64,000 bases of DNA from Schmidtea nova (lineage: Eukaryota). A program made the translations under genes and the position numbers. Where the stretch lies: positions 152,582,001 to 152,646,000 of the forward strand of contig CM097883.1 in assembly GCA_044892505.1 (NCBI GenBank), written 5' to 3'. Below are positions 22,381 to 64,000 of the stretch, one piece after another; the first letter of the stretch is position 1, and every line of letters begins with the position of its first letter. The notes under the pieces were generated by a model. That model searched no databases. It was given only the letters and a program-made list of their open reading frames with translations, and was not told where the DNA came from.

Positions 22381-22417
<37 letters not shown>

Positions 22418-24679: not shown

Positions 24680-24729
<50 letters not shown>

Positions 24730-29400: not shown

Positions 29401-32400
29401 TATCTATTATACTTTCCGTTACAATTTTTCCCATTAAAAAATTTTATATTTTAGATATTATACGAGGTGTATGAAAAGTAACTACCGAATTTTTTAATTT
29501 AATTTTTTAAACATCCAAATTAAAACTGAAAGATTTAAGATTTAAAACAGTTTTTGTCATCTACATTTTAATTGTTTAATCCTGCGAACCTTTTGTGTAA
29601 AGGTGTAGAGACAGCTTATTGCATTTCAAATTCAAAATCAAGAGCGAAATATAATAGTTTTTCTTTAATATTTCTGAAAAATTCTCTCTTGGCTGTAGTT
29701 ATAAAACTGTGTTCCTTCTCCGCCATAATTTTCATTAGATAAACAGTTAAGTCTCCTGTTAAAACAATTCCAATAATAGCATGAGGTAAAGAATATACAT
29801 CGTAAATAGGAACTACATGGGCCACACCATCTCCGGGATATAAAAAAATTAACATAGCTTGAACAAAAGAGACACATATAGTTAAAGCATTGGAAGTTTC
29901 AAATATGGGAAGAGTCTTCTTTTCTCTGTTGGCATTTGGACTGAAAGGAGCTGTAATCAACGATAATATGCGTTCGAGAACTACTCTCAATTTATTGTAT
30001 AAGAATGATGCCGGATCTTTTCCATATTATCCCAGTCTGTAACGATATTGTATTCGATTGGTTATTTCAAAATAAGAATACCTCTCTTCAAGTGATCTTC
30101 ATCAATGGAATAATTATCTTTCTGTCCCATACCAACTATAACACCTTGATAACGAGGTCGGTAAACGATAGAGGGGAACACGACCCATCGAGCATCATCT
30201 TTAATAAAACTGGCTTTCCACATGCCAAATTCATTGCAATTAATGATTCATTTTATGATTTGATTTGAAAATAAAATTTTATTGTCCTGGAAAACTGAGA
30301 AGATAAAAATAAAAAAGCGATTCCAGAAAATATTTATAGTTTCAAAACAACTCTTTTTTTTCTAAAATTTTAAAAACAATTAAATACAATTCAAATTCCA
30401 CACTCCACACTCAAAACCCAAATACCAAATACCAAAAAACCAATTGAAAAAAGATAAACAACAACTTTATTAACTCATTAAGTTATAAAATAACAATAAA
30501 ATCTAAAAGATTTTATTTTAATTCAAATATTTATTTTTGGATTGAGCACTAATTAACAAAGAATAAATACATCTACAGCTGTATAGGTTAACTAAACCAT
30601 TTAAATGAGAAGTTAATTCAAATATTTCAAGAAAAGATTGATCTGATTTGAGTATTCAAAGTTTAATACATTTTGATTCTTTCAGTATAATCCGTTCATG
30701 TAGCTGATGGAGCAATTTTTTTACGATTTTGTTTATTTTCATTCTTTAATTAATAAATCAAAATGTTTTTAATTTAACAAAGAATATTAGCAGTCTTTTT
30801 CAAGTGTTATTTTCATTTTGATCTATAGTTTGTGTAAGAAGAATAAATAGCAATAATTTTGATAAAATCTTTCCAATATAAATAGGCTATACACCAAATT
30901 TGCGTGTACAGTACATGTATTATCATATATCATTGGGATAAAAAATAAATAATTGTATTTACACAACATAAGAAATCAAATATCTCATTACAATTACTTT
31001 ACAGTTTTCATGAATGAAAATGAAAAAAATCACAAATAAAATATTCCAAGACGAAGAAAATAAAATATTATAATTATCAAATCACAAGCTTTCAAATATT
31101 AGAATATTTATAAATAAATGTTGTAATTTATAATTATTATTATCATTTTATTATGCCAGACCAAAAAATGGTTAACGTTGCGCAAGGTACAGCCAGTCAT
31201 TGAAAAGTGGATCGATGATATGCTGGAAAAAGATGCTTCATGTCGTCGTCAAATCGGCGATAGTTTCAATAGATTATTAATAGATAAAAAAATCACTAGT
31301 GAGCAAATTGTTGAAGGGTTAGTGTGATATAGTAATTTTTCATCAAATTTGAAAAATTAAATCTTCAGTACTCAAGTGTTTGTATCATCCATTGACGATT
31401 TAATTTGTGATATTCCTAAACTCTGGGAATTTTTCGCTCAGTTTCTAGAAAGATTTATTTATGACAAAAATTCAAATATCACATTTTTCGAGAATATATT
31501 CAAATCAATTTTACCAAATAACGACGTGGCCTTATGTTTATCCACAGCTCTGCATGAGGCTAGTTCAAGATTGGGACATAAAATCGTTGGTCAAGTGTTC
31601 CATAAATCATTGAAATGGGAAAGAATTGTGCCAAATCACTGGGAAACGTTTTTAAAAGATAATAACTTAGAATTCACTGTAGATTTGCCGGGATTATCTC
31701 TGTGTGGTGGAGATCCATTGAATTTTATTGCTGAAGAATTGGATGACATGCTATCAAACAATTTATCGAATGAAAAGATTTTCGAGTTTCTAGAATCGCA
31801 TGTCGATAAGCCGACTTGGAAAAAAAGCGAATGTACGAAAACAATTACTAGTTCCATATTAAAAGCATTAAGAAGTTAATAGCAAATTTTCATTTAATTT
31901 TGTTTAGATTTGGTTTTTAGAAATACCAGAAACTTTAGTTCCAGAATATTTGAAAAACAAAAAAGAAATTATTAAAAGAATTTCAAATCACAAGCTGGAA
32001 AACGAAATTGAAATTTTGAAATCCGTTTTAAATATCGCTTCTGAATTAAATAAAGGTAATCACTGCACAATTGGATATATTCTATTTTTCTTAATTCAAT
32101 TAAAATCTAATGAATTTGATAATTGATCTATTATACAACATTTATTCTCTCATTAACGTATTTTATTTTTACCTTTGATATTTTCTGTTCTATTTTGGAA
32201 ATTTTCGTTTTTAGAGACTAGATCAAATTTTTTAAAAGTACACGAATTTTATTTTTTCAAGCGTGTAAAAATACACACTTAAAAACATTTTGTCGGAAAT
32301 TCGTGTATTTTAAAAAGAAATTTAATTTAGTCTATAAATTATTTTATATATTTATTCTATTTTCATCATTTGAAGTAATATGATACACGATTTTTCCAAT

Positions 32401-35400
32401 AACAAAAATCTTAGAAAAATCCTGAAAAATCGACAAAGATACTTAAAAATCGATAAAAGAAAAACGTACTAAGCGAGGGATGGGTGTATTTCATTATTGC
32501 AGAAATTTTCATTTTATATGAAAATTAGCTAACAAATATTTTTTAAGTACATGAATTTGGTCTTTATTTATAAAAAGGGAAATTTCTGAACTAAAATAGA
32601 ATTTTGTTTAATAATACTCAAGTAATTTTTAATATGATTAGAAATTAAATGCAATAGCATCTAGATTATTTGGCCTAAAACTTTGGTCTAAAAACTACTA
32701 TTGGGTTGTCCGGAATGAAATGTACGAATAATATATTATAATTTTAAATCATCATAACTTTTATATATACAGTAGTTGCGATATTTAGGGCACAAAAATA
32801 GACCGTAAATGTTAAATTTTTAAAGCATTTATCTTGTAAGAAAAGAATTTCACTATTAAAATTTTGTATGATGTCAAAAAGAATAAAATAAATTTATATA
32901 TCGTTTATTTTTTATTTTTTAAAAGCAATATTTTCGAGCAATTCTGCAATTTATAATAAAAATTTAGGGCATGTTAAAAATTTAAGGCATTATTTTACTT
33001 AAATTTAATATTTACCTATAAAAAATCAATTTTGGTTAAAAATTTAAGGAAATCTTCATTATGAACTTAAATAAGAAAAAAAGAAAAACTTACACCAAAA
33101 GAATAAAATGTGAAATTGCCAAAGCATATAAAAAGGATAAAAAGGCTTTGTGTAACATCGAAAAAGAATTTATGTATCACAAAAGGTTATTAGAACAGCA
33201 ATCAAATCTTCGGAGGAGCTTTTAAACCTGGAAAGTGATGATCCAACATTGGATACTTTTAATTTATGTAAAGCTCTAGAAATAAAGCTATTGAACATTG
33301 ATCAATACATGCTTAATGGTATCAGGCAGATTAGAAATGCAGGTGGCAATGTTTTAATGGGGAACTTAATATCATTGTCAAAAAAATATAAATCAATAAC
33401 ACCATCTTGCCGTGTGAACATCACACCATACTTTATAAGAGGTTTTAAAAAGCAATATAATGTGGTATTTAAATCCCTTTGCGGAGAGGCAAAATCTGCT
33501 ATGGCAGACAAGATTCATGACTTTTTTGATGAATTTGAAGCTATAAAGAAATCTTATGATGAAAAAGATATTTACAATTTAGATGAGACTGGTCTATATA
33601 TCAAGAACTTTGGTAGAAGAAGTTACATTCTGAGGTATGAAGATGATAGAAAAAGTATAAAAACCGATAAAACAAGAATTACTCTTTTATTGTGTTTTAA
33701 TAAATACGGCGATGAGATTACGCCATTAATCATAGGAAAAAGCAAAAACACCAGGGCTTTTAAAAACGAGAAACCAGATAATTACAACCTCAAATATGCT
33801 GACAACACATCTTCGTGGCTTACCAAAGATCAAACAGGATAGAAAAATCCTAATATTATGCGATAATTTTAAAGGTCACGAGGTTGGTGTATTTTCGAAC
33901 GTGAAACTGTTATTTTTGCCACCTAATACTACATCGATCTTACAACGTCTAGATCTAGGCATAATTAACGATATCAAGTCTAAGTATTCTGAATATGTCA
34001 ATAACTTTGTTACAAATATGATAATTGATAATAGTGCGGATATAAAATCTTGTTTTAGTGCTTTGACATTGCTATCAATAAGGTTCTTCCCAGGACGTAT
34101 TTGAATTGTCGGGAAAAGTTTGAAAAAATGAAAGAGAAGCTTCAGAATGCAGATTTAGAAAAAGACGAAAATGAAGTTTTGTTTGATACTTTAATTGATC
34201 CAGACTGTGTGGTGAAAGTTGATCCTATTTATGATGAATCCTTATTTTGTCTCGATGAAATCATTTGCGAAGTTTTGTTTGAGTCTTTAATTGATCCAGA
34301 CTGTGTGGTGAAAGATGATCCTATTTATGATGAATCCTTATTTTGTCTCGATGAAATCATTCACGATATATCGGAAGCATCTAGGATTGAATCTGTAAAT
34401 TACCATTTAAAAAACTGGATAATTTGTTGCATTTTGAAGAAATTGATGTTAGAAAGTCGTACACTGAGTTTAAAAGTAAGTACTATGAAAGTAGATCCAG
34501 AAGATCTACGGTGACTTACATTATCGATTAAAGGCTATTTGTAATTTTTATAGCTATATCTTTATAAAATGTTTAAAGAATTTTATCATAAAAAACTAAA
34601 TTTATTTTTTCCTTATAAATAATTATTTTAGTATTGGAATTCGGTTTAAAGCATCTTTTAACTGGATGTAATTATATTTTTTTCGATCAAAACTGTATAT
34701 TAAAAACTGCGCAGTGCTGTATTCAATTATAAAGAAACCAACAGATTTTTATAGCGAATATCGCGCAAAATGTTCATGCTTCATTTTTATAATCAATTAA
34801 TAAAATTTTTTATATGTAATTAGAATTTATTCTGTGAATTGTCTTACCGCAATTCATGTTAATGAATTACACCTTTTAAAGTAAAAAAATCGTATATACA
34901 TAAATAATAATAATTTTAAATAATGATTTAATGTAATTTTAAACAAAATATTTTTTTTCGAAATTTAGGGCAAATAAGATTTTTAGGACATATTTGTGCC
35001 CTAAATTTCACACACTACTGTATAAGTATTTCTTTATTTTAAAGTTCATTAGAAAGCGCTTATTTCAAATTCAAATATTAAGTAAGATTTATAATAATTT
35101 AATTACTATAAATTTCATTTTCAATTAGAAATCATGATTTGAGACTTTTTTATTTATATGAGGGGAAATCGAAGAACAATTCAGGTGAGGTGGAGAGGAA
35201 TATTAATAATGCTTTTGGGAGCGATATAGTTAATGAAAGAACTATTAGGCGTTGGTTTAAAAATGTGATGACGGAGAAATTGATCTCGAAAATATGCCTC
35301 ATGGTAGGCCCAATATCAAGTGGTAGGAGGAAGATTTACGTGAATCTGTTGCTCAAAATTCAACAAAATTTGTTCGAGAACTTGCTATAGGTCTGTCTGT

Positions 35401-49724: not shown

Positions 49725-51134
49725 TATTTTGCCTGTGACTGGGATATATTTATTTGGACATAATTCTTGAGTGATGGACCAAACTGCTCGCCTTTTGTTC
49801 AAAATTATTAGTTTTGTTTTAATAATAAAATTTTACTGATTTAATTGATTATTTATTTGTCTGTCATAACTTATTAATGGAGAAGATAGTCATTAAGTTC
49901 GTTTCAAGTAAACTTTTGTAGGGAACATAATGAATAGTGGTAGGTTGCTTAACTAGTAGGGGACTAAAATGCGCAAAAGAAACCTTCTATCGGTCGCACT
50001 TGAACCCACTGTGATGTTTGGTCATTCATAGTTTCGAGATTTTCGACGCTTACTGTTTGCGAACATCCACCCATTTGTATCATTACCAATGTTGCATCGT
50101 ATCGGGCAACAAAAAGGTTAAATAATATTTTATGTGTTGAGTTGTTGATGTGAAATCCTAGCAACGCCAAAGCCATATTGACAGTCAACAACCCACCAAC
50201 TGAATAGAATAAAAATGGAAGCGTAAAGGAAAACAATAGGAAAAAGTGGTAGTGAGAGTGTTTAGGAGTAAATAGTTAAATGATTGAGGCAGATAAGAGT
50301 TAGAGGGTAAAAATCTATATAATAAACCTGATTTTAGTGAATTAATTTATGCTCAATATTGAACATCCACATAGGAAGAAGAATATAAATGGGCAATATT
50401 CCTTCTATTGGTCTTCTTGACCCCAAATGTTATATTCGGTATATTACAGATCTGGAAACAGCGTTCACTTTATGCGGATATCCACCCATTTGTTACAGGG
50501 ACAATAAGAGCTAGGTCAGCCAGTAACACACCAAAAATACTATTTAACATTTTGTAGGAATATTTATTTTGAGTCAGTTTCTTCTCTGAATCCTATATTG
50601 AAAATCCTTAAAACCCAAAACAACAAATTCTATTGAATTCCACAATTTACAAACGATAAATAAATACAATTTCTAATTTCTGCAAAACACAGCACTCTTC
50701 TTTATTCCAGCGATAGGGGTAGGTCTACCAAAGATAAATTACCATTTCTGATAAGCTTTTAATTTGTTAATATTAAGTTTCTGACAATCTCACTCTTTTT
50801 ACTTTTCAAATGTATCGTACAACCGACTAATAATTTTACTTCGACCAAACTGGGAATTTTCTGTCTTTTTGCTATTCCTTTTATAATAATTCTATTGTGC
50901 CAAAATATTAATTAAATTTACAGAATGGAGACATAATGGGGACATCTTTTTTTACAATTGTATTTTTGCAGAATTGAAACGACTGCTGTTTTTTATAATT
51001 TTATCATTTCGGCGTACGACTCCGATAATTTGATTTTATGTCGGGTTTCTCTTTTGTTCGGGTTTCACATTGACTCGGGTTTTCAACATAAGTAATAAAT
51101 TATTCATTAATCGTTAATTAATCTTTATTTATTA

Positions 51135-52158
51135 TGTTCGGTTCGTATCAGTGGTTTACGACGAACACAGAAAATATATATATATATATATAGATATATT
51201 TGATTTGATTATCGGACTCCAAACGATAATCCGCTTATATAATTATAAATAAAATATATGTTTTAGGTTGTGTGTAAGGAAAACAAAACTAATTCTTTTT
51301 ATTAAGATTTATTGTGAAATATGTATAACAATGTACAATATAATAAAATAGCTGCTAAGCAAAAGTTAGAAAATCGGTTATTCAAACCGTCCTCAGAGTT
51401 AAGAACGAAAGCTGGACCTAAAAGGCTCAACAGCTCCGACTAAATGAAAGGTCAAAAGATGAGGGATTCCCTGTAGTTTAACCGCGATAGTGACAACCCA
51501 GAAATGGTTGTCACTGTGACCTAATAATATCCCTTCTAATAATTTATTATTTAACGACTTTACTGAAGGGGAAAAATAGTAATACAACTATTTCCCCGTG
51601 ATCGATTTATAAGATTTAAAAACAAACTAGGAAAATTACCAGCTAATAAAGATTATTCCAATTTTCGGGAAATTATCGCAAATGAAATTCAAGCTAAACT
51701 TGTCGTAATACTTCTGCCGTAAAAATTAATTTCTCCAATTCACAAATCTGTAAAACTTAGATTCACTTCTGTAAAATTTATGTTCTGTCTTGACTGATTT
51801 GACAATCAGTTTATATACAAATTATTTTCTCTCATGTAGGTCTAGACGACCACCTATTACTAACTACGTGTAGGTCGAAATTGACCTTACAAAATATTAA
51901 CTTTAAAGTAATTTATTATTACTATATATATCTTATTATTACTATTTAAATTTCTCATGTATTTATTTATTACTATATTTATTATATATTATTTAATTGT
52001 TACTATATTTAATCTATATTTATTTATAGTAATTATTTATTTACTATTACTATTTATATATTTATTTATAGTAATTCTTAATTGCTATTTATATTTATTT
52101 ATTTACTTATAATATTTAATTACAAAAACCCGAGATCCCTTGATCTCGAACCCTAACA
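51135..52158 (-). repeat. 3' LTR (~1024 bp)
   Basis: Starts TGTTAGGGTTCG 2 nt after the PPT; ends CGAACCGAACA (imperfect inverted terminus); AATAAA near 51300; (TA)n near the end. The 5' LTR is not in the window to confirm. Confidence 0.75.
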
Positions 52159-52450
52159 TGTCTTCCCCCTAACAAGATTTTCGTCCCGAAAATTAAAGCG
52201 GAAAAGACAAGAAGGTTACGCAGCCATAAAATAAAAAATAAAATAACAACACATGCATATATATACATTGAATGCTCCTGGTCAATAAAAATCACACAAA
52301 ACAAATAAGTCATAATGTTGATCACAATCAATATCAAATAACAATTGTCTGTAAACGTTGGATTGTTGATCACATAGCCGAAGTGCTAATTGTTTGATTG
52401 ATAGTTGTCATAGCTTATAGCTAGACCTTGGATTGAACGTAGCAGAAATG

Positions 52451-54415
52451 CTAGTTATCCTTTGCGAATAGGTTTTGAGCTGCTCTCTTGCGTATATGCG
52501 CTTGTTCGTTCTTGATGCGATCTTCCACTATATCTGGTCTATAGCTGACCACCAATGTTTCGCGTGTTTCGACTTCCTTATATACCAAAGACGAAATCAC
52601 GTATGATTTTCCGTTGGCCTCCAATACGCCATAGTAAGGGAAGTTTGAGACTGATGATTGGTGTACCGGTTTCCCGTCGTATTCTTTTATCCTAGGTACC
52701 CAATTTCTCTCTGGTCGCTGCCAAAAACTAGGGTCTTCATTGTCCAAATCCTGGGGTATCTTTGCTGAATTTCCCGTTCCAACGAAATCCCCTTCTCTTA
52801 TAATAATAGGTTCGCCCTTAACCTCAGGAATCTGTTCCATATCGGGTGGAACGAATGCTGTTTCGATTAAATCTTTGTCTTCCGTCGAGAGGAGATTTGG
52901 TACTTTCTTCTTGATCTTTAGATCTTGTAACCTTACAACAGGTTCTTGACTTTTCGTTGGGGGTGACTTTTCTACTGAAGTCAATTTTTTAAAAGTCTTA
53001 GTAACTTTTTCCAAGAGCTTGTTCTCTTTCTTTGGTGGATTTTCTGGCACGATCTTTGTAATTGTACGGCTGTCTCCGTGTAAAGTTAAACGCATCTCTG
53101 TTTGCTCCTCACCCTCGCTTTCGCAGGTGGCATAATCGTCTTCATCAGCTAATGATATAGCTGGAGGAGATAGTGATTCTTCCTCAACTATCTTTTGCAA
53201 TTTGGTTGATAATGGTTGTTCCTGGGGTAAGCTCTCAATAGCTTTCCTTTTACTCGTTTCTTGTGGCTGTATTGTATGAACCATTTTGACTTCTGATGTA
53301 ATCGTCCCACTACGATTACCTGGGGTGATGTCATCTACCCAAACTTCTCTCAGTTTGAGGTAAATATTACGTGTCGTTTCCACGTCATTTTCCGTTTTCA
53401 GATCTGAACGGTTTAGTTCTTCCTTTTCGAGAATTGACTTTGATAAATACGCGAGTCGATAATGTCCGTTACATTTCTTTAGTTCTCTCGCTTCCAGACA
53501 TTTTGCTGCTCCTAGTTCTCTAATTCCCAAAACTCGTTGAGGGTGTAACTGAACTGCTTCCAAGAAATCATTGACTTGGAGACCTATTAGGATTTTCCCA
53601 TCACATAATTTTCTAATACGGTCTGCGCAATCCTCTCCGTCAAATTGTCCGATAATTTCTTTTTCGGTCATACCATGCGCGTGCGATTGGTAATGTTTGA
53701 CCTGGTTTCTGGGTGTAACCACCGTGTTTAATATTAAATCACCACAGTAGTTTGCTATCAAAACAGCCACCAAAGCTGGCTTTAAATAATCTCGCAAAGT
53801 TGCGTAATGCGCTGCAATAAATATTGACAATCTATCTTCTTGATTGGGGTGCAGATTCATCCGAACAAAGGATTTGAATGACTTGAGATCGTTCTCATTC
53901 ACATTATAGGTCCAGGCAGGTTCGTTTTTCCACAATGATTGCACTGCCTTGCTGGGTTCCAAAATCTCTAATACCACAATAGTATTATATCCGTCACATT
54001 GGATGGAGATATTCTTTTCTCTGCTATCTCCGTTACTAATTTCTAGAGTTGATTCTGGTTGAAGTAGGATGGGTCCTGTGGCTCCTGCCATGAAGATTGT
54101 AAAGGGTTTATTGATCGCGTGAATCAGGAGATGGTGAGTAAATGTTGATCTGTTAAATTCCGCCATGTGTTCAGTCAACCGGGTGTTCTCACGGCTGGTG
54201 ATTGTGACTATGCACATTTGTCTCTTAGGCGATCCGAGAAACTTAAAATTGTTCGGGATGCCGGTGCAGTGCCCGTAATACCAATAGCGACGACCTTTCC
54301 GTGCTTCTGCGGATATCGCTTTTTCGATGTTTCGATAAATCAGTTTTTCCTTCTGTACTGTTTGCACATCGATAGTGCTATAACGCTGCTTGTATTGTGA
54401 CACTTGATGCTTCAT
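52451..54415 (-). CDS. Accessory ORF3 with a degenerate DEDDh (REX4/ISG20-like) exonuclease domain
   Basis: LVAVLIANYCGDLILNTVVTP..QVKHYQSHAHGM...LCDGKILIG...RLAYLSKSIL...ENDVETTRNIY (53340-53830); acceptor TTTTTCTTTCAG at 54418, 2 nt before ATG 54415. Confidence 0.75.
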   Translation of the reverse strand: MKHQVSQYKQRYSTIDVQTVQKEKLIYRNIEKAISAEARKGRRYWYYGHCTGIPNNFKFLGSPKRQMCIVTITSRENTRLTEHMAEFNRSTFTHHLLIHAINKPFTIFMAGATGPILLQPESTLEISNGDSREKNISIQCDGYNTIVVLEILEPSKAVQSLWKNEPAWTYNVNENDLKSFKSFVRMNLHPNQEDRLSIFIAAHYATLRDYLKPALVAVLIANYCGDLILNTVVTPRNQVKHYQSHAHGMTEKEIIGQFDGEDCADRIRKLCDGKILIGLQVNDFLEAVQLHPQRVLGIRELGAAKCLEARELKKCNGHYRLAYLSKSILEKEELNRSDLKTENDVETTRNIYLKLREVWVDDITPGNRSGTITSEVKMVHTIQPQETSKRKAIESLPQEQPLSTKLQKIVEEESLSPPAISLADEDDYATCESEGEEQTEMRLTLHGDSRTITKIVPENPPKKENKLLEKVTKTFKKLTSVEKSPPTKSQEPVVRLQDLKIKKKVPNLLSTEDKDLIETAFVPPDMEQIPEVKGEPIIIREGDFVGTGNSAKIPQDLDNEDPSFWQRPERNWVPRIKEYDGKPVHQSSVSNFPYYGVLEANGKSYVISSLVYKEVETRETLVVSYRPDIVEDRIKNEQAHIRKRAAQNLFAKDN

Positions 54416-54601
54416 ATCTGAAAGAAAAATAATTAACGTTAATATCAGATATACTGATATGCCAATATTGGCTAAAAAGAAATGCATAAATCTCGATTTA
54501 CGGGATCTACTTATGCTGTAAGTTAATGCTACTCGGAGCTCAACAAGATTATAGATTTTAATATATATATAAATACAAATATGTGATTTTATCTGTAATT
54601 G

Positions 54602-57600
54602 TCATAATCTCGTCATCATAATCCCATCAACCGACTCAATAGCCTGGCTGAAGAATAATTTCATCCAAACTCCCATTGCTATCAATGTAGTGATCATAGC
54701 TAATACTGCTGACGTAATAATCCATACCCCAACGGGTAATTTTCCCAAGTGAGTAATGGGGTTTACTTCATTAATTTCACACTGACAACTTTTAATATAG
54801 CTTTCTGTTGATACTGTTGGTTTTACCATTTTCAATCCTTTCAATCTCTGCCATATTGCAGGATGAATGACGTAACTCTCTTTCCGTATTAAGGATGTAA
54901 CCGATTTCGTTGTCGTCGATGATTGAGGTAATTTCAAAGGTATTACTTCGTAAAATACCTCATTCCATTCATCGACTCCGGGCTTTTGTTTATTATTCAT
55001 ATAAGTGATATGAGCTTCCCACTCCACTGAGTTGTTCCACTTGAGATTTTGTTTCTCAACATCTTCATTTAGCCACAATTCTTGTACAATTTCCTTGTCG
55101 GAATGGATTTCTATCTTTACTCTATCCACTCCTTGTTTTGGTTGGCTGAAGGTAATCATACCTTGTTGGATATTTATTCTAGCTTTCCTTTTGAAATCTG
55201 CTGTCTTCAGCTTCCATTGTGACTTTGAAAAATCTGACCATCGTCCAAACATAAAATGTTGAACAAGTATATCTAATAAATATTCCTTTTCTGCTCGTAA
55301 GTCCTTTATGACTTTCACTCTTGTGTTTGAATCCAATGTAAAATGGAAACAACGTCGTTCACAAAACGAGAACTTGAATTTTGTATCATTTTCAGCCAAT
55401 GATATTATCCTAAATTCCTGGAAAGATCTTCTGAATGCGAGATCTTGGATTTGAACCGCTGTTGGAACAAATGTCTTTACACAGGATATGAGGCAACTTA
55501 TTATTACCAAAAATGTAACTGATTTTGGCACGCCTCTTGATCGTAATGGATATCTGTCTGAGACTGGTTCTGACCCTTTATCCTCCTTTTTCTTAATCGG
55601 ATCTTTCTCCGTGACCGCAACCTTCTTGCATCTGTTAGCATGTACCATTATTGGTTCAGCTTTTCTATTTGCTACTAATTGCAAGATTAAATTCGTGTCT
55701 GTTGTTCTTAAAACCTCATACGGTCCTTTGAAGTTTCTCATTAATTTAGGTGATAAGCCCTTTTTATTATAATGGCTTTCCAACATCACCTTGTCTCCAA
55801 CTAACATGCCATGTCCTTTGGCTTTCTTGTCATGATAATCTTTCGAGGCTTCCTGACTGAATTTTATACTAAGACCTGCTTTTGTCCATGCTTCTTGCAT
55901 TCTTTCTCTCATTTCCATGAGGTAATCCTCTTGGTCTAGATACTGTGTTGCTTTTGGGAAGAACAACAAATCTATAGGCATTTTACTTTGCCTTAAATAC
56001 ATGAGATAGAACGGCGTTTGTCCCGTACCCTCATGAACAGCATTTCTGTATGCGAATAGGCATGATGGAATATGTATATCCCAATCCGTTTGCCCTGAAT
56101 TTACGTATGATGCTAGCATATTTGCGAGCGTTCCGTTAAATCTCTCTACCAATCCGTCTGTTTGTGGATGATACGGAGAGGTATTCAATTTTAAAATGTC
56201 GAAATAATCATTTATTCCTTTTAACAGATTACTCATGAAATCTGCTCCTCTATCTGTTAGTAGTTTTGTAGGTACTCCATACCTAAAAACAATTTGCTCT
56301 ACGAAAATCCTGGCTATCGTATCTGCCTTGTGATTCGGTATCGGATAAGCCTCCGGCCATTTCGTCAAGTAATCGCAAAATACCAATATGTATTTGTTAC
56401 CACTATTTGATTCTTTGAATGGCCCTAAAACATCCATTGCCGTCATTTCCATCGGTGTGGATGGTACTGGCATTGGTTTCATTGGCACATGCGGTTTCTT
56501 CCCCGTATTTCTCCTGGTGATACAGATCTTACATGTCTGACACCATTCCTGTACGTCTTGTTTGATTGTCGGCCAGAAATATTTCTGCTTCAACCTTGAC
56601 AATGTTTTCCTGGAAGACAAATGCCCTCCCAGTGCTCCATCATGATATTGTAACATCAAGGCTTCCCGATATTTCTTAGGGACCATTATGACATTATCCC
56701 TTACATCCACATATTTGACTAATCCTTCTTCTAGGATAAATTTGTCTCGATTTTTCTCCCAATATTTATTAAATTCCGTCGGTATGAACTTTGCTTCTAA
56801 AGCCTGTCTGATTTGGTTTATCTCTTCATCCGATTGTTGTGCTGCCATTAAATCCGCGAGTCTGTTTGCTTCTCTTGTAAGTGCGAAGATTGTTCCTTCT
56901 AATCTTCCTTCCTTAACGTCTTCTGCTTCATCACCCTGGTCCATTCGAGAAAATGCATCCGCATTACCATTTTGGTGTCCTTTTCGGTAATGTATTTCGA
57001 TGTCGTATGGCTGCAAGATCAATGCCCATCTAACCAATTTTGATGTATCCATAGTATGCTTGGTTAACCACTGTAATGGTCTATGATCCGTATACACAAT
57101 GATCTTTCGACCCCATAAATATGTCCTGAATTGGTGTATAGCATACACAATTGCTAATGCTTCTAATTCGATAACTGCATAATTCTTTTCATGTGGTTTT
57201 AATCCTCTGCTAGCATACGCTATGGCATATTCGTCTCCTAGGTCATCTCTTTGACCTAACACAGCACCAATACCCCGAGTGCTGGCGTCTGTCATGACCA
57301 AAAATTGTTTCTCAAAATCTGGAAACCGTAATATAGGAGGTTCCACGAGCATCCTCTTTAGCATATCAAATGCTTCCTGTTGCTCTTTTCCCCATACAAA
57401 TTTGACATTTTTGCCCTCTAATTGTGTCAGAGGAAATGCTATTGCCGAAAAGTTCCTGATGAACTTCCTGTAATATCCCACTAAGCCCAAAAACCCTTTT
57501 ATATGTTTGACAGTCTTTGGCTCTGGAAAATTCTTTGCTTTCTCAACATTTGCTGGATCTGGCTTTACTCCATCCTTCGAGATAATGTGACCGACATAGA

Positions 57601-60214
57601 CTACCTCTGATTCGGCCCATTTACATTTCGATGGTTTTACCTTAAGATTTGCATTAATTAACCTTTTGAATACGTCCTCTAAATGTTCTAAATGTTTTTC
57701 CAAATCAGGAGAAAATACTATGATGTCATCTATGTATACCATTGCATGATGAACATCCATTAACATTAGATTCATTGCTCTTTGAAACGTTGCCGGCGCT
57801 CCTGTGAGACCAAATGGCATTACTGTATATTCGAAGTGTCCAAGGCTTGTGGAAAAAGCCGTAATTGGTATTGTCTCCTCTTTTAACTTGATTTGGTAAA
57901 ATCCCTTCTGAGCATCCATCACTGAGAAATATTTTGAATTTCTCATACGACCGTAGATGTAATCCAGTAATGGTAATGGGTGACTATCCTTGCAAGTTGC
58001 TTCGTTTACCATTCGATAATCGTTGCATAGTCGTACTGTTCCATCCTTTTTTGCCACTACTATCATTGGTGACTGGTATGGTGATTTACTATGCCTGATG
58101 ATGTTATGTTTTAACATCAGTTTTACCTGCTTATCGACAGGTTCTTCCAAGCTAAACGGAATTCGATACGGTCTCAGCTTTATTGGTTTAATGTTGTTAA
58201 GAACAATTTCATGTTCCAACAAGTTCGTCTTTCCCAGATCATATTCGTGCTTGGCGAATACTTGATCATATTTTCTTAACAACATGTTTACTTGAATATT
58301 CTCTCTTCGTGAAAGAGCTTTACTATTTGCCGTTGGCGCATCATAGTACTCGATGTCTGGTTCTCTATTCTCTGCCTTCACTGTCAGGACGGATCCCCCA
58401 ATCGGTAATTGATCCGACTTTGATACTCTCCCTACTCTTGTATCTGGATACAATTTTAATGGTTTTATATCTAAATTGGCTACCCGAATTGGTATTCTGC
58501 CATTTTCAACTTTACCAACGCTATGCGTAATTGGTAGATCATATTTTGCTGAGAACCTTTCATCTGGTTCGAATACAACTTCTCCTTCCCACTGTTCGCT
58601 AGTGGACACGAAACATACTGTTTCTGCTCTAGGTGGTATTATCATCGTATGGTCGATGAAAACTGTATCATCATTATAAACTTTTCTTTTCTTACCGATT
58701 GATCTGACTAACAATCCGGTAGCACAATCGAACACAACTCCTTTTAATCTTCTTAAAAGATCCATTCCTAGTAGACATTCTACTGGACAAGTTCTCATGA
58801 CTATAATATCATGACGAAATTCTTGGCCACATAGCTTGATGTTACAAGCTAGAGTACCGATAATATTCAATGATGTGCCTGTAGCACCTGTTAGCGAAAC
58901 TCTTGAGGTTTCCATTGATTCCAATTCTTTTTGATTTAATAGTGTTGCCTCTATGATGGTGCCGTCTGCTCCTGAATCTATCACTGCATTAACTGTGTGT
59001 CTGTTTATTTTTATCTTTATCATGGGTTTCTTATCCAAGTTCACCCCATTTGCCATCAAAATAGTAGCATGCGTTATCCCGATGGTATTTGCTCTGAATT
59101 TCTCTGCTTCATCTTGTTCGGTATCACTCAATTTTGGATTATATTCCTTGAATTTAGCTTTTATTGCTTCTAACGACTCGATAGGATACAGTTTCCCTTC
59201 ATTTTCTAACGATAATGATATGCTTTTACCTGTTTCTCGAGCATCTTTGTCGAGAATTTGTTGATGTTTAGAAGTGTACATTTTGTTCCTTGGTAAAGTT
59301 AAAGCATAACTTGGCTTGCCTTCTCCTGATGTCTTTTGAAACTCTGGCGATTCTCCCTTTGGCGCTGTTGGTAAGCTTCTAAGATATGGCAATTGCATAT
59401 ATCTTGGGCTTCTTTTCAATCTAGGCGATGCTGTATTGATTGCAAATTTCTGGTCTGCACTATCGTATTCATCTTCTGAAATCATACTTTTGTCGAAAAT
59501 CTGTTTTGTCGCTTCGTAAGGTGGTTGATAATCCCGATATTTCATTTTCCTTAATTGATGATTCGGTTTTTTATTGTAGTTTCTTTTTCGACTTCTACTT
59601 TGCCTCTGAACTGTATTAAGAGAGTCTCCATTACCTCCTCCTTCCGAATTGTTATCGTCCCGATAACTTGTATTACCCTCCATTTCGATTCCAATAATCT
59701 CGTGTTTTACCAAGCTTCTCTGTTTGATTGTCTTTATTTCTTTACGATGATGTTTAAACAATGCAAATTCCGCACACATAGGACATAATCCTAGTATCAA
59801 CTTCCAAGACCATCCACCGATTTTGAATATACTGTATGTGGAAATTAATTGTGTTATTATTAACTTTAGAATTACGAATATTGCATATATTCCTGAGCAG
59901 CCTGCCACGAAAATACCAAAATTGGTAAACCTTCCCCATATTTTCATCATTACATTTTTTGCTGCTTCTTTATAATGATCTGGACCAAATAATAAATTGT
60001 AATCTGGTCTCATTTCGTTTGCTTGGTAAATTGTTCTTATGATTTCGGTGATACCTCTTTCTCTTACTTGAGGGAATAGCAATGTCTGTCTTGCCTCCTC
60101 AATGTCTGCTGGAGTGTAAATTCCTCCTTGTGATAATTCATCGAGTGATTTAAATTCCATGTTTTCCTCGAGTTTCGTGACTTCCAATGTTTCCACCTTT
60201 CTATTAGATGGTTT
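54602..60214 (-). CDS. pol: Polyprotein: env C-terminus/TM, protease, RT, RNase H, integrase, type-I membrane protein
   Basis: VIDSGA (DSG 58970-58978); YIDD (57725-57736); TDAS, ELE and TDH in RNase H; HHCC plus MDVLG, TDRG, VERFN in integrase; GPY; RYPLRSR; then a hydrophobic segment and a C-terminal TM. Confidence 0.95.
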   Translation of the reverse strand, partial: KPSNRKVETLEVTKLEENMEFKSLDELSQGGIYTPADIEEARQTLLFPQVRERGITEIIRTIYQANEMRPDYNLLFGPDHYKEAAKNVMMKIWGRFTNFGIFVAGCSGIYAIFVILKLIITQLISTYSIFKIGGWSWKLILGLCPMCAEFALFKHHRKEIKTIKQRSLVKHEIIGIEMEGNTSYRDDNNSEGGGNGDSLNTVQRQSRSRKRNYNKKPNHQLRKMKYRDYQPPYEATKQIFDKSMISEDEYDSADQKFAINTASPRLKRSPRYMQLPYLRSLPTAPKGESPEFQKTSGEGKPSYALTLPRNKMYTSKHQQILDKDARETGKSISLSLENEGKLYPIESLEAIKAKFKEYNPKLSDTEQDEAEKFRANTIGITHATILMANGVNLDKKPMIKIKINRHTVNAVIDSGADGTIIEATLLNQKELESMETSRVSLTGATGTSLNIIGTLACNIKLCGQEFRHDIIVMRTCPVECLLGMDLLRRLKGVVFDCATGLLVRSIGKKRKVYNDDTVFIDHTMIIPPRAETVCFVSTSEQWEGEVVFEPDERFSAKYDLPITHSVGKVENGRIPIRVANLDIKPLKLYPDTRVGRVSKSDQLPIGGSVLTVKAENREPDIEYYDAPTANSKALSRRENIQVNMLLRKYDQVFAKHEYDLGKTNLLEHEIVLNNIKPIKLRPYRIPFSLEEPVDKQVKLMLKHNIIRHSKSPYQSPMIVVAKKDGTVRLCNDYRMVNEATCKDSHPLPLLDYIYGRMRNSKYFSVMDAQKGFYQIKLKEETIPITAFSTSLGHFEYTVMPFGLTGAPATFQRAMNLMLMDVHHAMVYIDDIIVFSPDLEKHLEHLEDVFKRLINANLKVKPSKCKWAESEVVYVGHIISKDGVKPDPANVEKAKNFPEPKTVKHIKGFLGLVGYYRKFIRNFSAIAFPLTQLEGKNVKFVWGKEQQEAFDMLKRMLVEPPILRFPDFEKQFLVMTDASTRGIGAVLGQRDDLGDEYAIAYASRGLKPHEKNYAVIELEALAIVYAIHQFRTYLWGRKIIVYTDHRPLQWLTKHTMDTSKLVRWALILQPYDIEIHYRKGHQNGNADAFSRMDQGDEAEDVKEGRLEGTIFALTREANRLADLMAAQQSDEEINQIRQALEAKFIPTEFNKYWEKNRDKFILEEGLVKYVDVRDNVIMVPKKYREALMLQYHDGALGGHLSSRKTLSRLKQKYFWPTIKQDVQEWCQTCKICITRRNTGKKPHVPMKPMPVPSTPMEMTAMDVLGPFKESNSGNKYILVFCDYLTKWPEAYPIPNHKADTIARIFVEQIVFRYGVPTKLLTDRGADFMSNLLKGINDYFDILKLNTSPYHPQTDGLVERFNGTLANMLASYVNSGQTDWDIHIPSCLFAYRNAVHEGTGQTPFYLMYLRQSKMPIDLLFFPKATQYLDQEDYLMEMRERMQEAWTKAGLSIKFSQEASKDYHDKKAKGHGMLVGDKVMLESHYNKKGLSPKLMRNFKGPYEVLRTTDTNLILQLVANRKAEPIMVHANRCKKVAVTEKDPIKKKEDKGSEPVSDRYPLRSRGVPKSVTFLVIISCLISCVKTFVPTAVQIQDLAFRRSFQEFRIISLAENDTKFKFSFCERRCFHFTLDSNTRVKVIKDLRAEKEYLLDILVQHFMFGRWSDFSKSQWKLKTADFKRKARINIQQGMITFSQPKQGVDRVKIEIHSDKEIVQELWLNEDVEKQNLKWNNSVEWEAHITYMNNKQKPGVDEWNEVFYEVIPLKLPQSSTTTKSVTSLIRKESYVIHPAIWQRLKGLKMVKPTVSTESYIKSCQCEINEVNPITHLGKLPVGVWIITSAVLAMITTLIAMGVWMKLFFSQAIESVDGIMMTRL

Positions 60215-62779
60215 TCAGTCAGGTAATGAGATCCATCTATCATTTACTTTGTATAACGGTGATATTGCTGGATTGCAAATTGAAGGTTGAGGCTTTTGTT
60301 TTTCATCCAAAAGTCTCCTCGTTACTGGCATTACAAATCGTATTCTGTTTTGATATGACACTGGTAATTCTAGAGTACATTCGTTATACCTAGTTAATTG
60401 TACCTCTATGGGTTGACATTGATAGCTGTATATAGCTTCCCCCATAATTCTGCCAAACATTCCATCTTCTAGCGACATAGGTGTCACTAGATCCGGATTC
60501 ACGATTGATATCGCTAATCGATTTCGAACTATTTCGCGATTTAGTTTGCAATCATTGAGTATTACTTCCTGATACATTTCCTGCATTTGTCCTTGCAGAT
60601 CATGATATAAATAATCTATTTTATTATTTATATAGTTCGTGATTTTGATATCCTGGCTGTGAATATTCTTGGCTTTTTGGATAATTGTTTTTGACAAATA
60701 TAATCCTTTATAGTTGGTCTCGTACACCACTTTTCCGCATTTTGTCTTCTTATCTTTTCTGACAAATCTGATTGCATCTTTCTTATCTTCTGATACTAAT
60801 ACTAGAGGTGTAATTTCCTCACTAATATCCTCTTTTTGCTGTTTGTTGATCCTTTTCAACGTCTTTTCTTTATCCCAAATTCTTTCTCTTTTGGGTAAAT
60901 CTCGATACTTTGTCCCGTTCAACTTATGGAAATTAATTTTCTTTAGTAATGACAATTCGCAATGGTCTAGTATTTGATCGTATAATAATGTGCTGACCCC
61001 TGTTCTGCAGCTTCCAAATTTCGCAAGGCACTGAGGGTGTGCCATTAATCTTCCTGATAATACATCGAACGTCCCTTCGTATTCTCTTAATTCGATTGAA
61101 TAGTCCTCGATATCTACGACAAAGCTTACCAACTCCGATCCGCGAGTTTTCTTTCTTCCCGTACAGGTACCATCTGATCCGATTGATCCTCCTCGTGTAA
61201 TGGTTACTCCCAGTGTTTTTCCTACTTCCGCGGCGATGGTTACCTCGTTATCGATTCTTAAAGTACCTTTTCGAAAGGCGTCTAGACAATCCTCTGGCAA
61301 TATGTTGACAGGTCTAGGTATTAGAGTGGCTGATAGAAAAGCCGTATAGCTGTGTGAACCACAATAATATTCAAATGTCGCTCTTTGGACTCTACATTCT
61401 CTTATCTTAGTTCTGAAGAATTCACTTTCTTGATAGACATAGTATTCGACCTTTTCTCCTGTTTGGACTTTCTCTGGATATGCCTCTTTGCACTCAATTG
61501 CATCCACGAGCGAGTATATCCGAGCTAACTTTGGATCACTGCAATCGAACGCTGTCATTGTGTTTGTCTGTTTCATTATCCCCATCATTACTAAAAACAT
61601 TAATATCATATTCGTCATATTCCCCATTCCTCCATTTCCGAGGTGGTTGTTATTCATAGCTTCTTCCACAAATTCATATCGTGGTTTATGTTTCTCCTCT
61701 TCCCAGAAGTTATTTTCACTCATCCACGTTCCGAGATAATGCTCCGTTATCTCCGTGATCTGATCTATTTCTCGATTAATAAACTTCTTCTCATTGCCTG
61801 CGCGGGCTAAAGCATCTTGAATCAACATAGATAATGCTGTCACTATTTTTCCTTTAGATAACCCATCTTGTATGAGCGTCTCTACCATACTCTGTATCTC
61901 GTTTTGCGGTACCCCTCTAGGTAATCTCCTCATAGTCTTCGCGATTGACTGTGTCACTTTATCCACTTGAATTCCTTTAATCCGAGTGATCTGCCATTCT
62001 GGCTTTAATATTCCTATGATCTGTTTTAATCTCTTCCATGTCAGAGATTTTTCTGGTATATGTACTCCCTCGTCTCTCATATCAACATCCCTGGCTATTC
62101 CTGACAGGGTTTTCATCTGAACCTGTTTAATGGTTTCTTGGTTTAATTGCTCCGTTGGGGGAGGTTTCATTTGATCTTTCCTAGGCCTTCCTCGCCTATC
62201 TTTCTTTGTCTGCCATGCTGGCCTGATAGTTTCTACCGCCTGAGAAGTTGAAGCTCCCACGTTAGTTTCCTCATTATTGAGTCTGATTTCCTCTTCTCCG
62301 TGATTATCGGCATCGATATCTACATTAAATGGATGTGTTTCGACGTTACCAGTGACCATTTCATCTGGTAACCGTAATGCTGACCATTGAGATTCAGGTG
62401 GCTCTACGGGAATGATTGCTACCGTTGTAGTTTCAAAAGGTAGACATCCCACATCTACTAAATATTCATCATCATCTACTTGCCCTCCATGAATCATAAT
62501 CAAGAATATACCGGTAGTCTGCCCAGTATCTATTAAATCCTTTCTCAACGTTATCACTTTGCTAAAACAACGATATAACCTCGTCATGGGTTCTTTTCCC
62601 GATATTCGAATGTCTAAAGTTATCATGCCTTGTCGGTGTGCTTGATGACGTATTGCTGTTCCATTTTTTCTCATTAACATTTTTATTTCTGTTTGAAAAG
62701 AACTAGTTTCTTTTACTACAGGTAGTAATATAGGAATTATACTCTCCAATGATTCTACTGGTATGCGCAATACCAACAT
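60215..62779 (-). CDS. env: AT-hook-containing spacer, signal peptide and chuvirus/gB-like glycoprotein ectodomain
   Basis: RRGRPRK; MILMFLVMMGIM...TA|FDC; C-x(9)-YYCGSHS; Cys-rich ectodomain; continues in frame past one TGA into GGIYT...WGRFTNFG and the TM. Confidence 0.85.
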   Translation of the reverse strand: MLVLRIPVESLESIIPILLPVVKETSSFQTEIKMLMRKNGTAIRHQAHRQGMITLDIRISGKEPMTRLYRCFSKVITLRKDLIDTGQTTGIFLIMIHGGQVDDDEYLVDVGCLPFETTTVAIIPVEPPESQWSALRLPDEMVTGNVETHPFNVDIDADNHGEEEIRLNNEETNVGASTSQAVETIRPAWQTKKDRRGRPRKDQMKPPPTEQLNQETIKQVQMKTLSGIARDVDMRDEGVHIPEKSLTWKRLKQIIGILKPEWQITRIKGIQVDKVTQSIAKTMRRLPRGVPQNEIQSMVETLIQDGLSKGKIVTALSMLIQDALARAGNEKKFINREIDQITEITEHYLGTWMSENNFWEEEKHKPRYEFVEEAMNNNHLGNGGMGNMTNMILMFLVMMGIMKQTNTMTAFDCSDPKLARIYSLVDAIECKEAYPEKVQTGEKVEYYVYQESEFFRTKIRECRVQRATFEYYCGSHSYTAFLSATLIPRPVNILPEDCLDAFRKGTLRIDNEVTIAAEVGKTLGVTITRGGSIGSDGTCTGRKKTRGSELVSFVVDIEDYSIELREYEGTFDVLSGRLMAHPQCLAKFGSCRTGVSTLLYDQILDHCELSLLKKINFHKLNGTKYRDLPKRERIWDKEKTLKRINKQQKEDISEEITPLVLVSEDKKDAIRFVRKDKKTKCGKVVYETNYKGLYLSKTIIQKAKNIHSQDIKITNYINNKIDYLYHDLQGQMQEMYQEVILNDCKLNREIVRNRLAISIVNPDLVTPMSLEDGMFGRIMGEAIYSYQCQPIEVQLTRYNECTLELPVSYQNRIRFVMPVTRRLLDEKQKPQPSICNPAISPLYKVNDRWISLPD

Positions 62780-62784
62780 CCAGT

Positions 62785-64000
62785 CTAATATTTCCTTGAT
62801 TGTTTCTCCATCCTCGGAGATTTCTGCAACTCTATCTTCAGACGTTGCTCTATTTGTTGGACTTCTTCCAACTGTGCAATTTCCATTTGTGTGAGTAGAA
62901 ACACACTGTCTTGATCCACTACTGGGACCGATATTCCTGTCAGTTTCGTTGTGAGTTTCGTTACCTTTCCTGGTAATACACCATTTTGTAGTAGTGTTTC
63001 TCCAACTACTAACTTTTCTCCATATAAATAAAAATCATATCTATTATGTTTCAATTTCATCATTGTATCTGACAACTTGTCTGTTCGACATCTTACATTC
63101 ATGTCGATGTTAAACTCCTGCTCATGAGGAAGTTTTATGTTTAAATGTGAATCCTGAAGATCCCATTCATGTTCCATTGCTGTCCCTATCTTTCGTAGGA
63201 TTCTATGTATGTCGCTATGATACCTTGGATCATCTTCGACCTGAGATATTAACTGTAATATCTTTCCAATTTCACTATTCTTGATATCACCTTGTGATAA
63301 TTTCTCTAATTCTCTAGTCAGTCTCTGCTGATACTCATATCTGGAATCCACCAGTTTTAAACATTTTGCTAGGGTATCTGACCCTTTCTTGGCCTTTGTT
63401 TCCTTGAACAAAGCCTGGTCGAACTCGCTCAGTATGGTACTCATACTGGGTTCGTCATCATTATCAGAATTTGTTTCTGATTCTATTACCTCATGATTCT
63501 CGCTGCTGGAATCCATGGGTTCACTATTTCCTTGCTCATCTGTGTAAGCATCATGATTTTTCTCAGCTGAAATCATCAAAACTGTTCCTTGCCCAACTGT
63601 GTGAGCATCATCGCTTTCCTCAATGGGGTTCATTATAACTGTTCCTCGCCCATCCATGTGAGCATGATTTTTCTCAGCTGAAATCATAAAAACTGTCTCT
63701 TGCCCAACTGTGTGAGTCTCATTTATTTCTTCAATTGTATTCATCAAAACTGTTCCTCGCTCATCTGTGTGAGCATGATTTTTCTCAGCTGAAATCATAA
63801 AAACTGTATCATATCGATCCATTAGCCGTGCTAATCGATTTTTCTCCTCCTGGATTTCCATTTCCAGTTGTTGCAAATACGTCAATTCTTTATCGTGATT
63901 GACCATGAACGTAGTTTTTGGCTTGCTGACATTACCACTATTGGTAGTCCTATTATTCGTATTATTACTCTGATTTTGAGGACACGACCTCAGAATATGC
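62785..64000 (-). CDS. gag: Gag C-terminal part (frame open to the window edge)
   Basis: The frame of ORF 62785-63906 stays open for 31 more codons to 63999, reading HILRSCPQNQ (H-x4-C end of a CCHC knuckle). Confidence 0.8.
   Translation of the reverse strand, partial: HILRSCPQNQSNNTNNRTTNSGNVSKPKTTFMVNHDKELTYLQQLEMEIQEEKNRLARLMDRYDTVFMISAEKNHAHTDERGTVLMNTIEEINETHTVGQETVFMISAEKNHAHMDGRGTVIMNPIEESDDAHTVGQGTVLMISAEKNHDAYTDEQGNSEPMDSSSENHEVIESETNSDNDDEPSMSTILSEFDQALFKETKAKKGSDTLAKCLKLVDSRYEYQQRLTRELEKLSQGDIKNSEIGKILQLISQVEDDPRYHSDIHRILRKIGTAMEHEWDLQDSHLNIKLPHEQEFNIDMNVRCRTDKLSDTMMKLKHNRYDFYLYGEKLVVGETLLQNGVLPGKVTKLTTKLTGISVPVVDQDSVFLLTQMEIAQLEEVQQIEQRLKIELQKSPRMEKQSRKY
63520..63820 (-). repeat. 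~3 x 111-bp in-frame repeat (37 aa) in gag
   Basis: GCTGAAATCAT at 63566, 63677 and 63788. Confidence 0.95.

Follow-up and report, generated by a model that had tools for sequence, protein, structure and literature searches.

A single Gag–Env–Pol frame in a young Ty3/gypsy family of Schmidtea nova and the likely membrane topology of its product

A 64,000-nucleotide stretch of the Schmidtea nova genome (GenBank GCA_044892505.1, contig CM097883.1, positions 152,582,001 to 152,646,000; hereafter the window) holds most of a 14,847-bp retroelement with long terminal repeats (LTRs), which lies on the minus strand and was read in the window plus the next 19 kb (the extended window). We show that the family to which this element belongs encodes gag, env and pol as one frame of about 3,450 codons, of which the window copy is a broken member. 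Our overall reading, to which we assign a probability of about 0.75, is that the window carries a disabled copy of a young Ty3/gypsy family with a single gag-env-pol frame, the product of which is likely threaded four times through the membrane of the endoplasmic reticulum (ER), much as flavivirus polyproteins are. An original prediction, made from the window sequence, gave an accurate description of env, with a signal-like stretch, AFDC, a Cys-rich ectodomain, a single TGA, GGIYT, a transmembrane segment (TM) and a linker running in one frame into protease (PR), reverse transcriptase (RT), RNase H (RH) and integrase (IN). It was right on the layout, and overlooked some 490 codons upstream, the unit that follows the integrase and the continuity of the chain with gag.

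One frame from gag to beyond the integrase

The minus-strand frame from 63034 to 54605 is open in the window except for a single TGA in env (60217–60215), and an indel near 62810 changes the frame between gag and env, so that gag appears as a separate open reading frame (ORF). Both breaks are private to the window copy. The TGA site is a sense codon in 64/64 covering copies (30/30 picked by the junction between the Env TM and PR, and 34/34 picked by the post-integrase part), and the indel is missing from 28/28 covering copies. Thus, the family encodes one Gag–Env–Pol chain. In 10 of the 30 copies fetched by the junction, the frame is unbroken over 3,411–3,449 codons, beginning upstream of the gag start and ending with the stop at 54604; this terminal stop is present in 25/25 covering copies. 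The frame extends about 490 codons upstream of the env signal (signal 1) and about 300 codons beyond the integrase, into a second membrane unit. A programmed frameshift between gag and env and read-through of the env TGA were also considered, and both were rejected because the two sites are private. The parts of the element are listed here, with the kind of evidence in brackets where it is not the plain reading of the frame.

51131–51134, minus: 4-bp target-site duplication (TSD), TAAT on the element strand; the second copy precedes the 5′ LTR, outside the window
51135–52158, minus: 3′ LTR, 1,024 bp, TG...CA
52159–52174, minus: polypurine tract adjoining the 3′ LTR (sequence)
52451–54415, minus: ORF4, an ORF of its own; its exonuclease-like domain, of ISG20/REXO (DEDDh) type, lies at about 53860–53345
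54418–54430, minus: putative splice acceptor, a pyrimidine tract and AG right before the ORF4 ATG (sequence)
54602–54604, minus: conserved polyprotein end, TGA
54662–54739, minus: predicted TM2 (hydropathy)
54740–55474, minus: predicted ectodomain, belonging to a second type I membrane protein and likely made up of one or two beta-sandwiches that resemble FN3; two N-glycosylation sequons
55463–55534, minus: predicted internal signal sequence 2 (hydropathy; at the same place in relatives)
55600–56700, minus: integrase, with H2C2 zinc finger, rve core and GPY-type motif (Pfam, sequence)
57005–57394, minus: RNase H (Pfam)
57581–58054, minus: reverse transcriptase, YIDD at 57736 (Pfam)
58739–59035, minus: aspartic protease, DSGA at 58978 (Pfam)
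59040–59755, minus: Env tail and linker to the protease, open in frame, about 238 codons
59800–59756, minus: short second hydrophobic stretch, which probably does not cross the membrane
59920–59834, minus: Env TM1 (hydropathy)
59921–61552, minus: Env ectodomain, Monjiviricetes/chuvirus-type glycoprotein, Cys-rich, AFDC start at 61552–61541, GGIYT at 60127
60215–60217, minus: premature env stop, TGA, private to the window copy
61574–61618, minus: predicted internal signal sequence 1 (hydropathy; occupies the position expected of a Bcl-2 tail anchor)
61700–62040, minus: Bcl-2-like domain with BH1- and BH2-like motifs (profile search)
62432–62722, minus: possible ubiquitin-like domain, weak
62805–62815, minus: frameshifting indel, private to the window copy, which creates the apparent separate gag ORF
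62820–64000, minus: C-terminal part of Gag, with a 111-bp repeat
Beyond the window, up to extended coordinate 64869, minus: Gag capsid domain, four CCHC knuckles and start codon
Outside the window, extended coordinates 64962–65981, minus: 5′ LTR, about 1,020 bp

The frame change seen in the window copy would also suit an element with a separate Gag ORF, in which Pol is recruited through an Env–Pol chain instead of a Gag–Pol fusion, as the original prediction had proposed. That Pol follows the Env TM in frame, and that a Met occurs shortly before signal 1 in 4 of 12 proteins, the window's among them, agree with such an arrangement. It is contradicted at the DNA level, however, by the private nature of the indel, by the copies that read through from gag together with both sister families described below, and by outside relatives that carry Gag knuckles or capsid in the env chain, and we regard it as very improbable. 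Moreover, in the other 8 of the 12 proteins no Met is present within 15 residues upstream of signal 1, which favours an internal signal over a separate start. A tethering of Pol behind the Env TM, also part of the original prediction, is supported by the frame; since the family has a single frame, Pol would be joined to Gag through Env, and not in place of a Gag–Pol fusion.

The order PR-RT-RH-IN, LTRs with TG...CA ends, the TSD, a tRNA primer site and a polypurine tract together identify a Ty3/gypsy element. The LTR pair of the window copy is 99.8% identical, and the pairs of 23/23 copies with both LTR ends located are 99.5–100% identical; a 4-bp TSD flanks 21 of these 23, the remaining two being tandem neighbours. 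The primer-binding site lies directly 3′ of the 5′ LTR and matches the host tRNA-Trp. Whole copies are about 95–98% identical to the window copy, slightly below the 98% counting rule of PMC13524379, and the post-integrase part gave about 90 full-length matches of more than 90% identity among the 150 matches listed from the host genome (1.25 Gb, AT-rich). The family is young, recently amplified and present in many copies; being also compact, it allows the rules of an odd polyprotein to be read. LTR length varies from 947 to 1,143 bp among copies, yet is equal within each copy, the source of the variation being an AT-rich variable region. The tRNA-Trp that primes the element is itself found in a tandem array (G000:C3, from about 128.02 Mb; L083–L085), in which the 3′ pattern of tRNA-Trp is matched exactly 1,984 times, at intervals of about 282 bp among the matches listed; in L083, ARAGORN identifies a tRNA-Trp(CCA).

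A search of the host genome with the env-TM/PR junction gave 254 candidates, of which 40 were scored, one being the window itself, and the junction was matched end to end at 98–100% in all 40 places. The fusion is therefore not a chance product, a check that the original prediction had called for. The first set of copies comprises 30 of the 39 other junction matches (nine were left out). A second set of 40, mostly with shorter frames, where env-less forms would hide, was picked by a match to the post-integrase part so that picking by env was avoided. In this set env is whole in 32 copies, partial in two and missing in six; of these six, gag too is absent from the fetched 10 kb of five, and the remaining one carries a deletion that reaches into RT. 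Copies with gag and pol and with env alone deleted were not found among these 40 (0/40). The two breaks near env in the window copy could suggest a nested insertion, or an assembly chimera, in an ordinary gag-pol element. The junction common to all scored places, the lack of an internal LTR in the extended window, the env survey, in which copies without env were also without gag or RT in the fetched stretch, and a single sequencing-run contig that covers the 3′ part of env, the TM and the start of the linker refute this, and its probability is practically nil. Within the element, Env is both old and fixed.

Domains of the chain and the accessory ORF

Upstream of env, the Bcl-2-like domain was recognized with a three-row profile that matches Bcl-xL at E 3.9e-4, the 60 matches shown all being of the Bcl-2 family; the BH1- and BH2-like motifs align, and the Pfam score of the domain is below cut-off. 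It stands directly upstream of the env signal, so placed that signal 1 occupies the position of a Bcl-2 tail anchor. We found no published description of a Bcl-2 tail read as a signal in the literature searched, outside which lie Grohme 2018, Sacco 2022 and Repbase. For the ubiquitin-like region, which is doubled in families A and B, the top three profile matches are ubiquitin-like, the best at an E of only 0.15.

Pfam PF24664 (Monjiviricetes_fusion) matches env to either side of the TGA (E 2e-59 and 2.2e-23), and a profile search likewise indicates that Env keeps full-length homology to viral fusion glycoproteins. The proposal of the original prediction that a gB/chuvirus-type fusogen (gB, glycoprotein B) lies in frame upstream of the protease is borne out by these matches, which support a mononega/chuvirus-type (gB-like, class III) assignment. 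RVP, RVT_1, RT_RNaseH, Integrase_H2C2 and rve follow in gypsy order, with a spacer of about 230 aa between PR and RT and no dUTPase match in a Pfam scan of the window ORFs. An AlphaFold model of Env on a three-row alignment has a predicted local distance difference test (pLDDT) score of 34; its start is rich in beta structure and a helix of 43 residues lies at its centre, features that agree with the five-domain class III (gB) fold without proving it. Foldseek gave no match with this pLDDT-34 model, and a profile search of the PDB with Env found nothing relevant.

The unit after the integrase consists of a signal-like stretch, a domain of 245 aa and a TM. It is present also in families A and B and, at 28–33% identity, in three decayed relatives, and hydropathy places a signal-like and then a TM-like stretch after the integrase in all four outside relatives that extend past it. 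The ectodomain is likely, though not proven to be, FN3-like: a loose FN3-like motif occurs in 5 of 7 sequences, an Atlas search gave a weak FN3 lead, and the best structural matches of a low-confidence model (pLDDT 44) are fibronectin and the FN3 domains of CD45 (Z 7.1, root-mean-square deviation 2.6, 81 residues). Sequence searches of the PDB with this ectodomain gave only matches at chance level (interferon receptor 1, E 0.1). No published description of the second membrane protein was found in the literature searched; Grohme 2018, Sacco 2022 and Repbase lie outside that literature, and either of the two papers may describe this protein or ORF4.

ORF4, downstream of the polyprotein, has no Pfam match in the window copy and no homologue among 1,757 candidates. 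In family A, ORF4 matches ISG20L2 at E 4.6e-7, with the catalytic motifs intact. Of the DEDDh residues, the ExoI D/E and the ExoIII H, kept in families A and B, are all absent from the window family, and the ExoI acids and ExoIII His are lost also in two nearer relatives of that family. The acceptor-like AG before the ORF4 start is present in 6/6 relatives read, families A and B among them. The likely message for ORF4 is an RNA that has been spliced or trans-spliced. A gap of about 400 nt, full of stops, separates ORF4 from the polyprotein in families A and B and speaks against read-through; in that gap, a TATA-like word was noted (L064/L065), which makes an internal promoter an alternative to splicing. 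No published description of a degenerate exonuclease ORF of this kind was found in the literature searched, which does not extend to Grohme 2018, Sacco 2022 or Repbase.

A genome search with the env family gave 95 matches, and many frames near 3,400 codons were seen among the 68 of 3,413 candidates scored. Ten fetched loci represent the sister families A and B, in which identity to the window's proteins is about 43% for env and about 55% for RT; the layout there is the same, and 6 of the 10 have one frame of 3,393–3,401 codons. An env profile search of 1.84 billion proteins gave 1,848 matches, the best full-length ones being long polyproteins and most others stand-alone glycoproteins of about 650 aa. 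Of the 14 outside relatives scanned, nine have the protease downstream of env in a shared chain, as have P0001 and P0151; Gag knuckles or capsid share the chain with env in P0002, P0006, P0007, P0012, P0015 and P0016, and in P0006 and P0015 the chain spans from a Gag knuckle through env to the integrase. In a quick env tree (midpoint root, relatives only, without named references), the 12 envs embedded in polyproteins group together as one clade (SH-aLRT 100), separate from nine mostly stand-alone glycoproteins, and the shape of the tree roughly follows that of an RT tree of the relatives. Judging by these relatives, the in-frame Gag–Env–Pol layout is old.

Every part of the element is under purifying selection. 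Ratios of nonsynonymous to synonymous shared polymorphisms (N/S) are 0.00–0.15 over 11 coding regions of the family (env 0.03, Bcl-2 0.05, second ectodomain 0.07, dead exonuclease domain 0.03, linker 0.15), and the nonsynonymous to synonymous rate ratio (dN/dS) between families A and B is 0.02–0.41 where dS is unsaturated, with 0.03 for the env ectodomain. These values bear on the possibility that Env plays no part in entering other cells and is only an internal membrane anchor or a means of budding into the ER. Such a role would fit the failure to recover the gB fold with AlphaFold and Foldseek; the ectodomain, however, is as constrained as the integrase by both measures and has kept its homology to viral fusion glycoproteins over its full length, and we consider a role as anchor alone unlikely.

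Among the relatives, several further features were observed. NCBI lists P0006, a chain with Gag knuckle, Env, Pol and a second membrane protein, with a metagenome bin of Flavobacteriaceae, where it is probably animal DNA. P0001, P0002 and P0151 have three to seven aspartic-protease-like domains per chain, some after the integrase, and P0151 has an additional signal-like stretch ahead of the last protease before RT. A group of abundant LTR elements that carry BIR (L090–L101) has a protease match without an env, RT or integrase match, and small ORFs, part of them with TM stretches, are lined up downstream; these are likely non-autonomous Burro-type elements. Three BIR-bearing loci and one further locus gave a protease match, and no env or RT match in those elements.

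Proposed membrane topology and its alternatives

The sequences show the order of the parts, the single frame and four main hydrophobic segments that are conserved; the steps of the proposed topology are drawn from what is generally known about how signal and stop-transfer sequences act and how the polyproteins of flaviviruses are built. In this scheme, Gag, with the ubiquitin-like and Bcl-2-like cargo, would be synthesized in the cytosol. Signal 1 would then direct the gB-type ectodomain into the lumen and, after cleavage by signal peptidase, may stay behind as the membrane anchor of Gag–Bcl-2. TM1 would halt transfer, leaving PR-RT-RH-IN in the cytosol. A second ectodomain, likely FN3, would enter the lumen through signal 2, and the chain would end with TM2. 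Signal peptidase and the protease of the element would cut the chain. Gag, Pol and both surface proteins would thus reach one membrane patch for budding, and the element's protease would free them. The second surface protein is likely an attachment partner of the fusogen, or one that mimics a host receptor; herpes gB, for instance, needs partner proteins.

Several points weigh against this reading. The predicted topology comes from a simple hydropathy scan and not from a signal-peptide predictor; the second hydrophobic stretch after TM1 could span the membrane and so upset the topology. The Env model is poor, with no Foldseek match and the gB fold not recovered, and the ubiquitin-like call is weak. 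The FN3 call depends on a model of pLDDT 44 with Z below 8, glycosidase beta-sandwiches being nearly tied; the second ectodomain has no Pfam match, and the Atlas lead is weak. The second ectodomains of distant relatives lack significant alignment to one another, and that of P0014 looks unrelated.

Moreover, a 1:1:1 yield of Gag, Env and Pol is unusual and would probably call for a further source of Gag. Possibly, the single frame is real and spliced or early-ended RNAs supply most of the Gag, or skip env, the full chain being a minor product. Single-ORF copia and plant elements make excess Gag through shorter RNAs, a precedent in favour of this arrangement, as are the acceptor-like sites before ORF4. 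In contrast, GT-AG ends were found in 0/5 internal deletions examined and in neither of two clean deletions from the env survey, and, as stated, none of the 40 copies picked by the post-integrase part combines gag and pol with the removal of env alone. Reverse-transcribed cDNA forms of spliced RNAs were not seen among the deletions and copies examined. We consider a supply of this kind a serious, if minority, possibility; it is compatible with the four-pass chain and alters only the proportions of the products.

A wider extension of the four-pass reading is offered more tentatively, at somewhat less than even odds. These flatworm elements may represent an enveloped lineage with a flavivirus-like build, in which a four-pass polyprotein has a Bcl-2 tail anchor that doubles as the signal of a class III fusogen, Pol lies between two surface proteins, an FN3-type protein acts as attachment or receptor-mimic partner, an exonuclease or pseudoexonuclease acts against host RNA defence, and spread is from cell to cell, for example into stem cells. 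If the model with two surface proteins is true, the build of this enveloped retroelement is unlike that of retroviruses or errantiviruses, and it bears on the access of elements to planarian stem cells.

Other features of the window lie apart from the element. Exon-sized frames at 11208–12197 and 31361–31879 (plus strand) resemble a host eIF4G gene, with a weak MA3 match (E 0.002, below cut-off) and a YxxxxL motif. A decayed gypsy-type PR-RT-IN (20747–22764, plus strand) lies between 114-bp inverted repeats in 20417–25411. Terminal inverted repeats of 52 bp, together with internal repeats, mark a foldback or MITE-like unit at 28232–29265, and a DDE_1 (pogo/Tigger-type) transposase fragment is found at 33156–33842 (plus strand).

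Comparison with known systems

The headline layout has already been published for flatworm elements, and our finding therefore overturns nothing. The original prediction knew of no description of it; in fact, the planarian Burro elements are described (PMC6431247, section 7) as having env within a single polyprotein, in frame and flanked by gag and pol, and GAG-ENV-POL elements whose env belongs to the HSV/gB type (HSV, herpes simplex virus) are reported from flatworms, nematodes and bryozoans, where they do not form one clade (PMC13524379, Chary and Hayashi). What is added here to the printed accounts is the analysis of private breaks, the tRNA-Trp primer, the Bcl-2 tail as env signal, the second membrane protein and the selected, degenerate exonuclease ORF. 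Non-canonical nematode endogenous retroviruses (ERVs) reportedly have a continuous gag-env-pro-pol ORF. Those ERVs, cited in PMC13524379 for env before pol (Sacco et al., 2022), have env before pol as our element does; their hosts are nematodes, and the likeness drawn here is one of gene order. The parts of PMC4402516 and PMC12440569 consulted add nothing on gene order.

Two more distant systems share single traits with the element. Anakin elements reportedly carry env 3′ of pol. Their glycoprotein family is the same, PF24664, whereas their pol is of the BEL/Pao type (Dezordi et al.). In the rotifer LTR elements Vesta and Juno, as in ours, an accessory 3′ ORF of an exonuclease family follows pol; according to PMC5408684, their ORF3 is RNase D-like (DEDDy) with intact residues, whereas ORF4 is of the ISG20/REXO (DEDDh) type, intact in families A and B and degenerate in the window family.

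The gene order, the homology of the env sequence and the presence of several highly similar genomic copies place the element, on each conclusive sequence test, in the flatworm group of GAG-ENV-POL errantiviruses with HSV/gB-type env. Its closest known relative there is Smed_errantivirus_4 (PMC13524379), which has the same gag-env-pol order, a gypsy pol and many copies; at the start of env, 67 of 100 residues are the same, by a visual count against the row in the supplement, and the listed span of 14.9 kb, which includes search flanks, is similar in scale to the 14.8 kb of our element. In contrast to the single chain described here, the sections of that paper covered treat GAG, ENV and POL as ORFs and do not contain the words 'fused', 'polyprotein', 'Bcl', 'fibronectin', 'exonuclease' or 'Burro', and they give no primer tRNA for the Smed elements. 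With Burro/GYPSM1, as described in the Burro section of PMC6431247, the element shares one polyprotein with Gag, a BCL2-like domain and a mononegavirus-like env before the protease. Burro also has a SUMO/ubiquitin-like domain ahead of BCL2, where our element has the possible, weakly matched ubiquitin-like domain, and a dUTPase-like region between PR and RT, where our element has the spacer of about 230 aa. Burro, however, exceeds 30 kb, with an ORF of 4,873–5,140 aa against about 3,450 aa here, and carries BIR, ankyrin and MATH/TRAF cargo, none of which appeared in a Pfam scan of four window ORFs that did not include the gag start; the same section makes no mention of a second membrane protein or an exonuclease ORF. 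Thus, the element has the in-frame env and the BCL2-like domain before it that mark Burro, without the giant size and the BIR, ankyrin and MATH cargo: it works like a small Burro, and is none by size and cargo.

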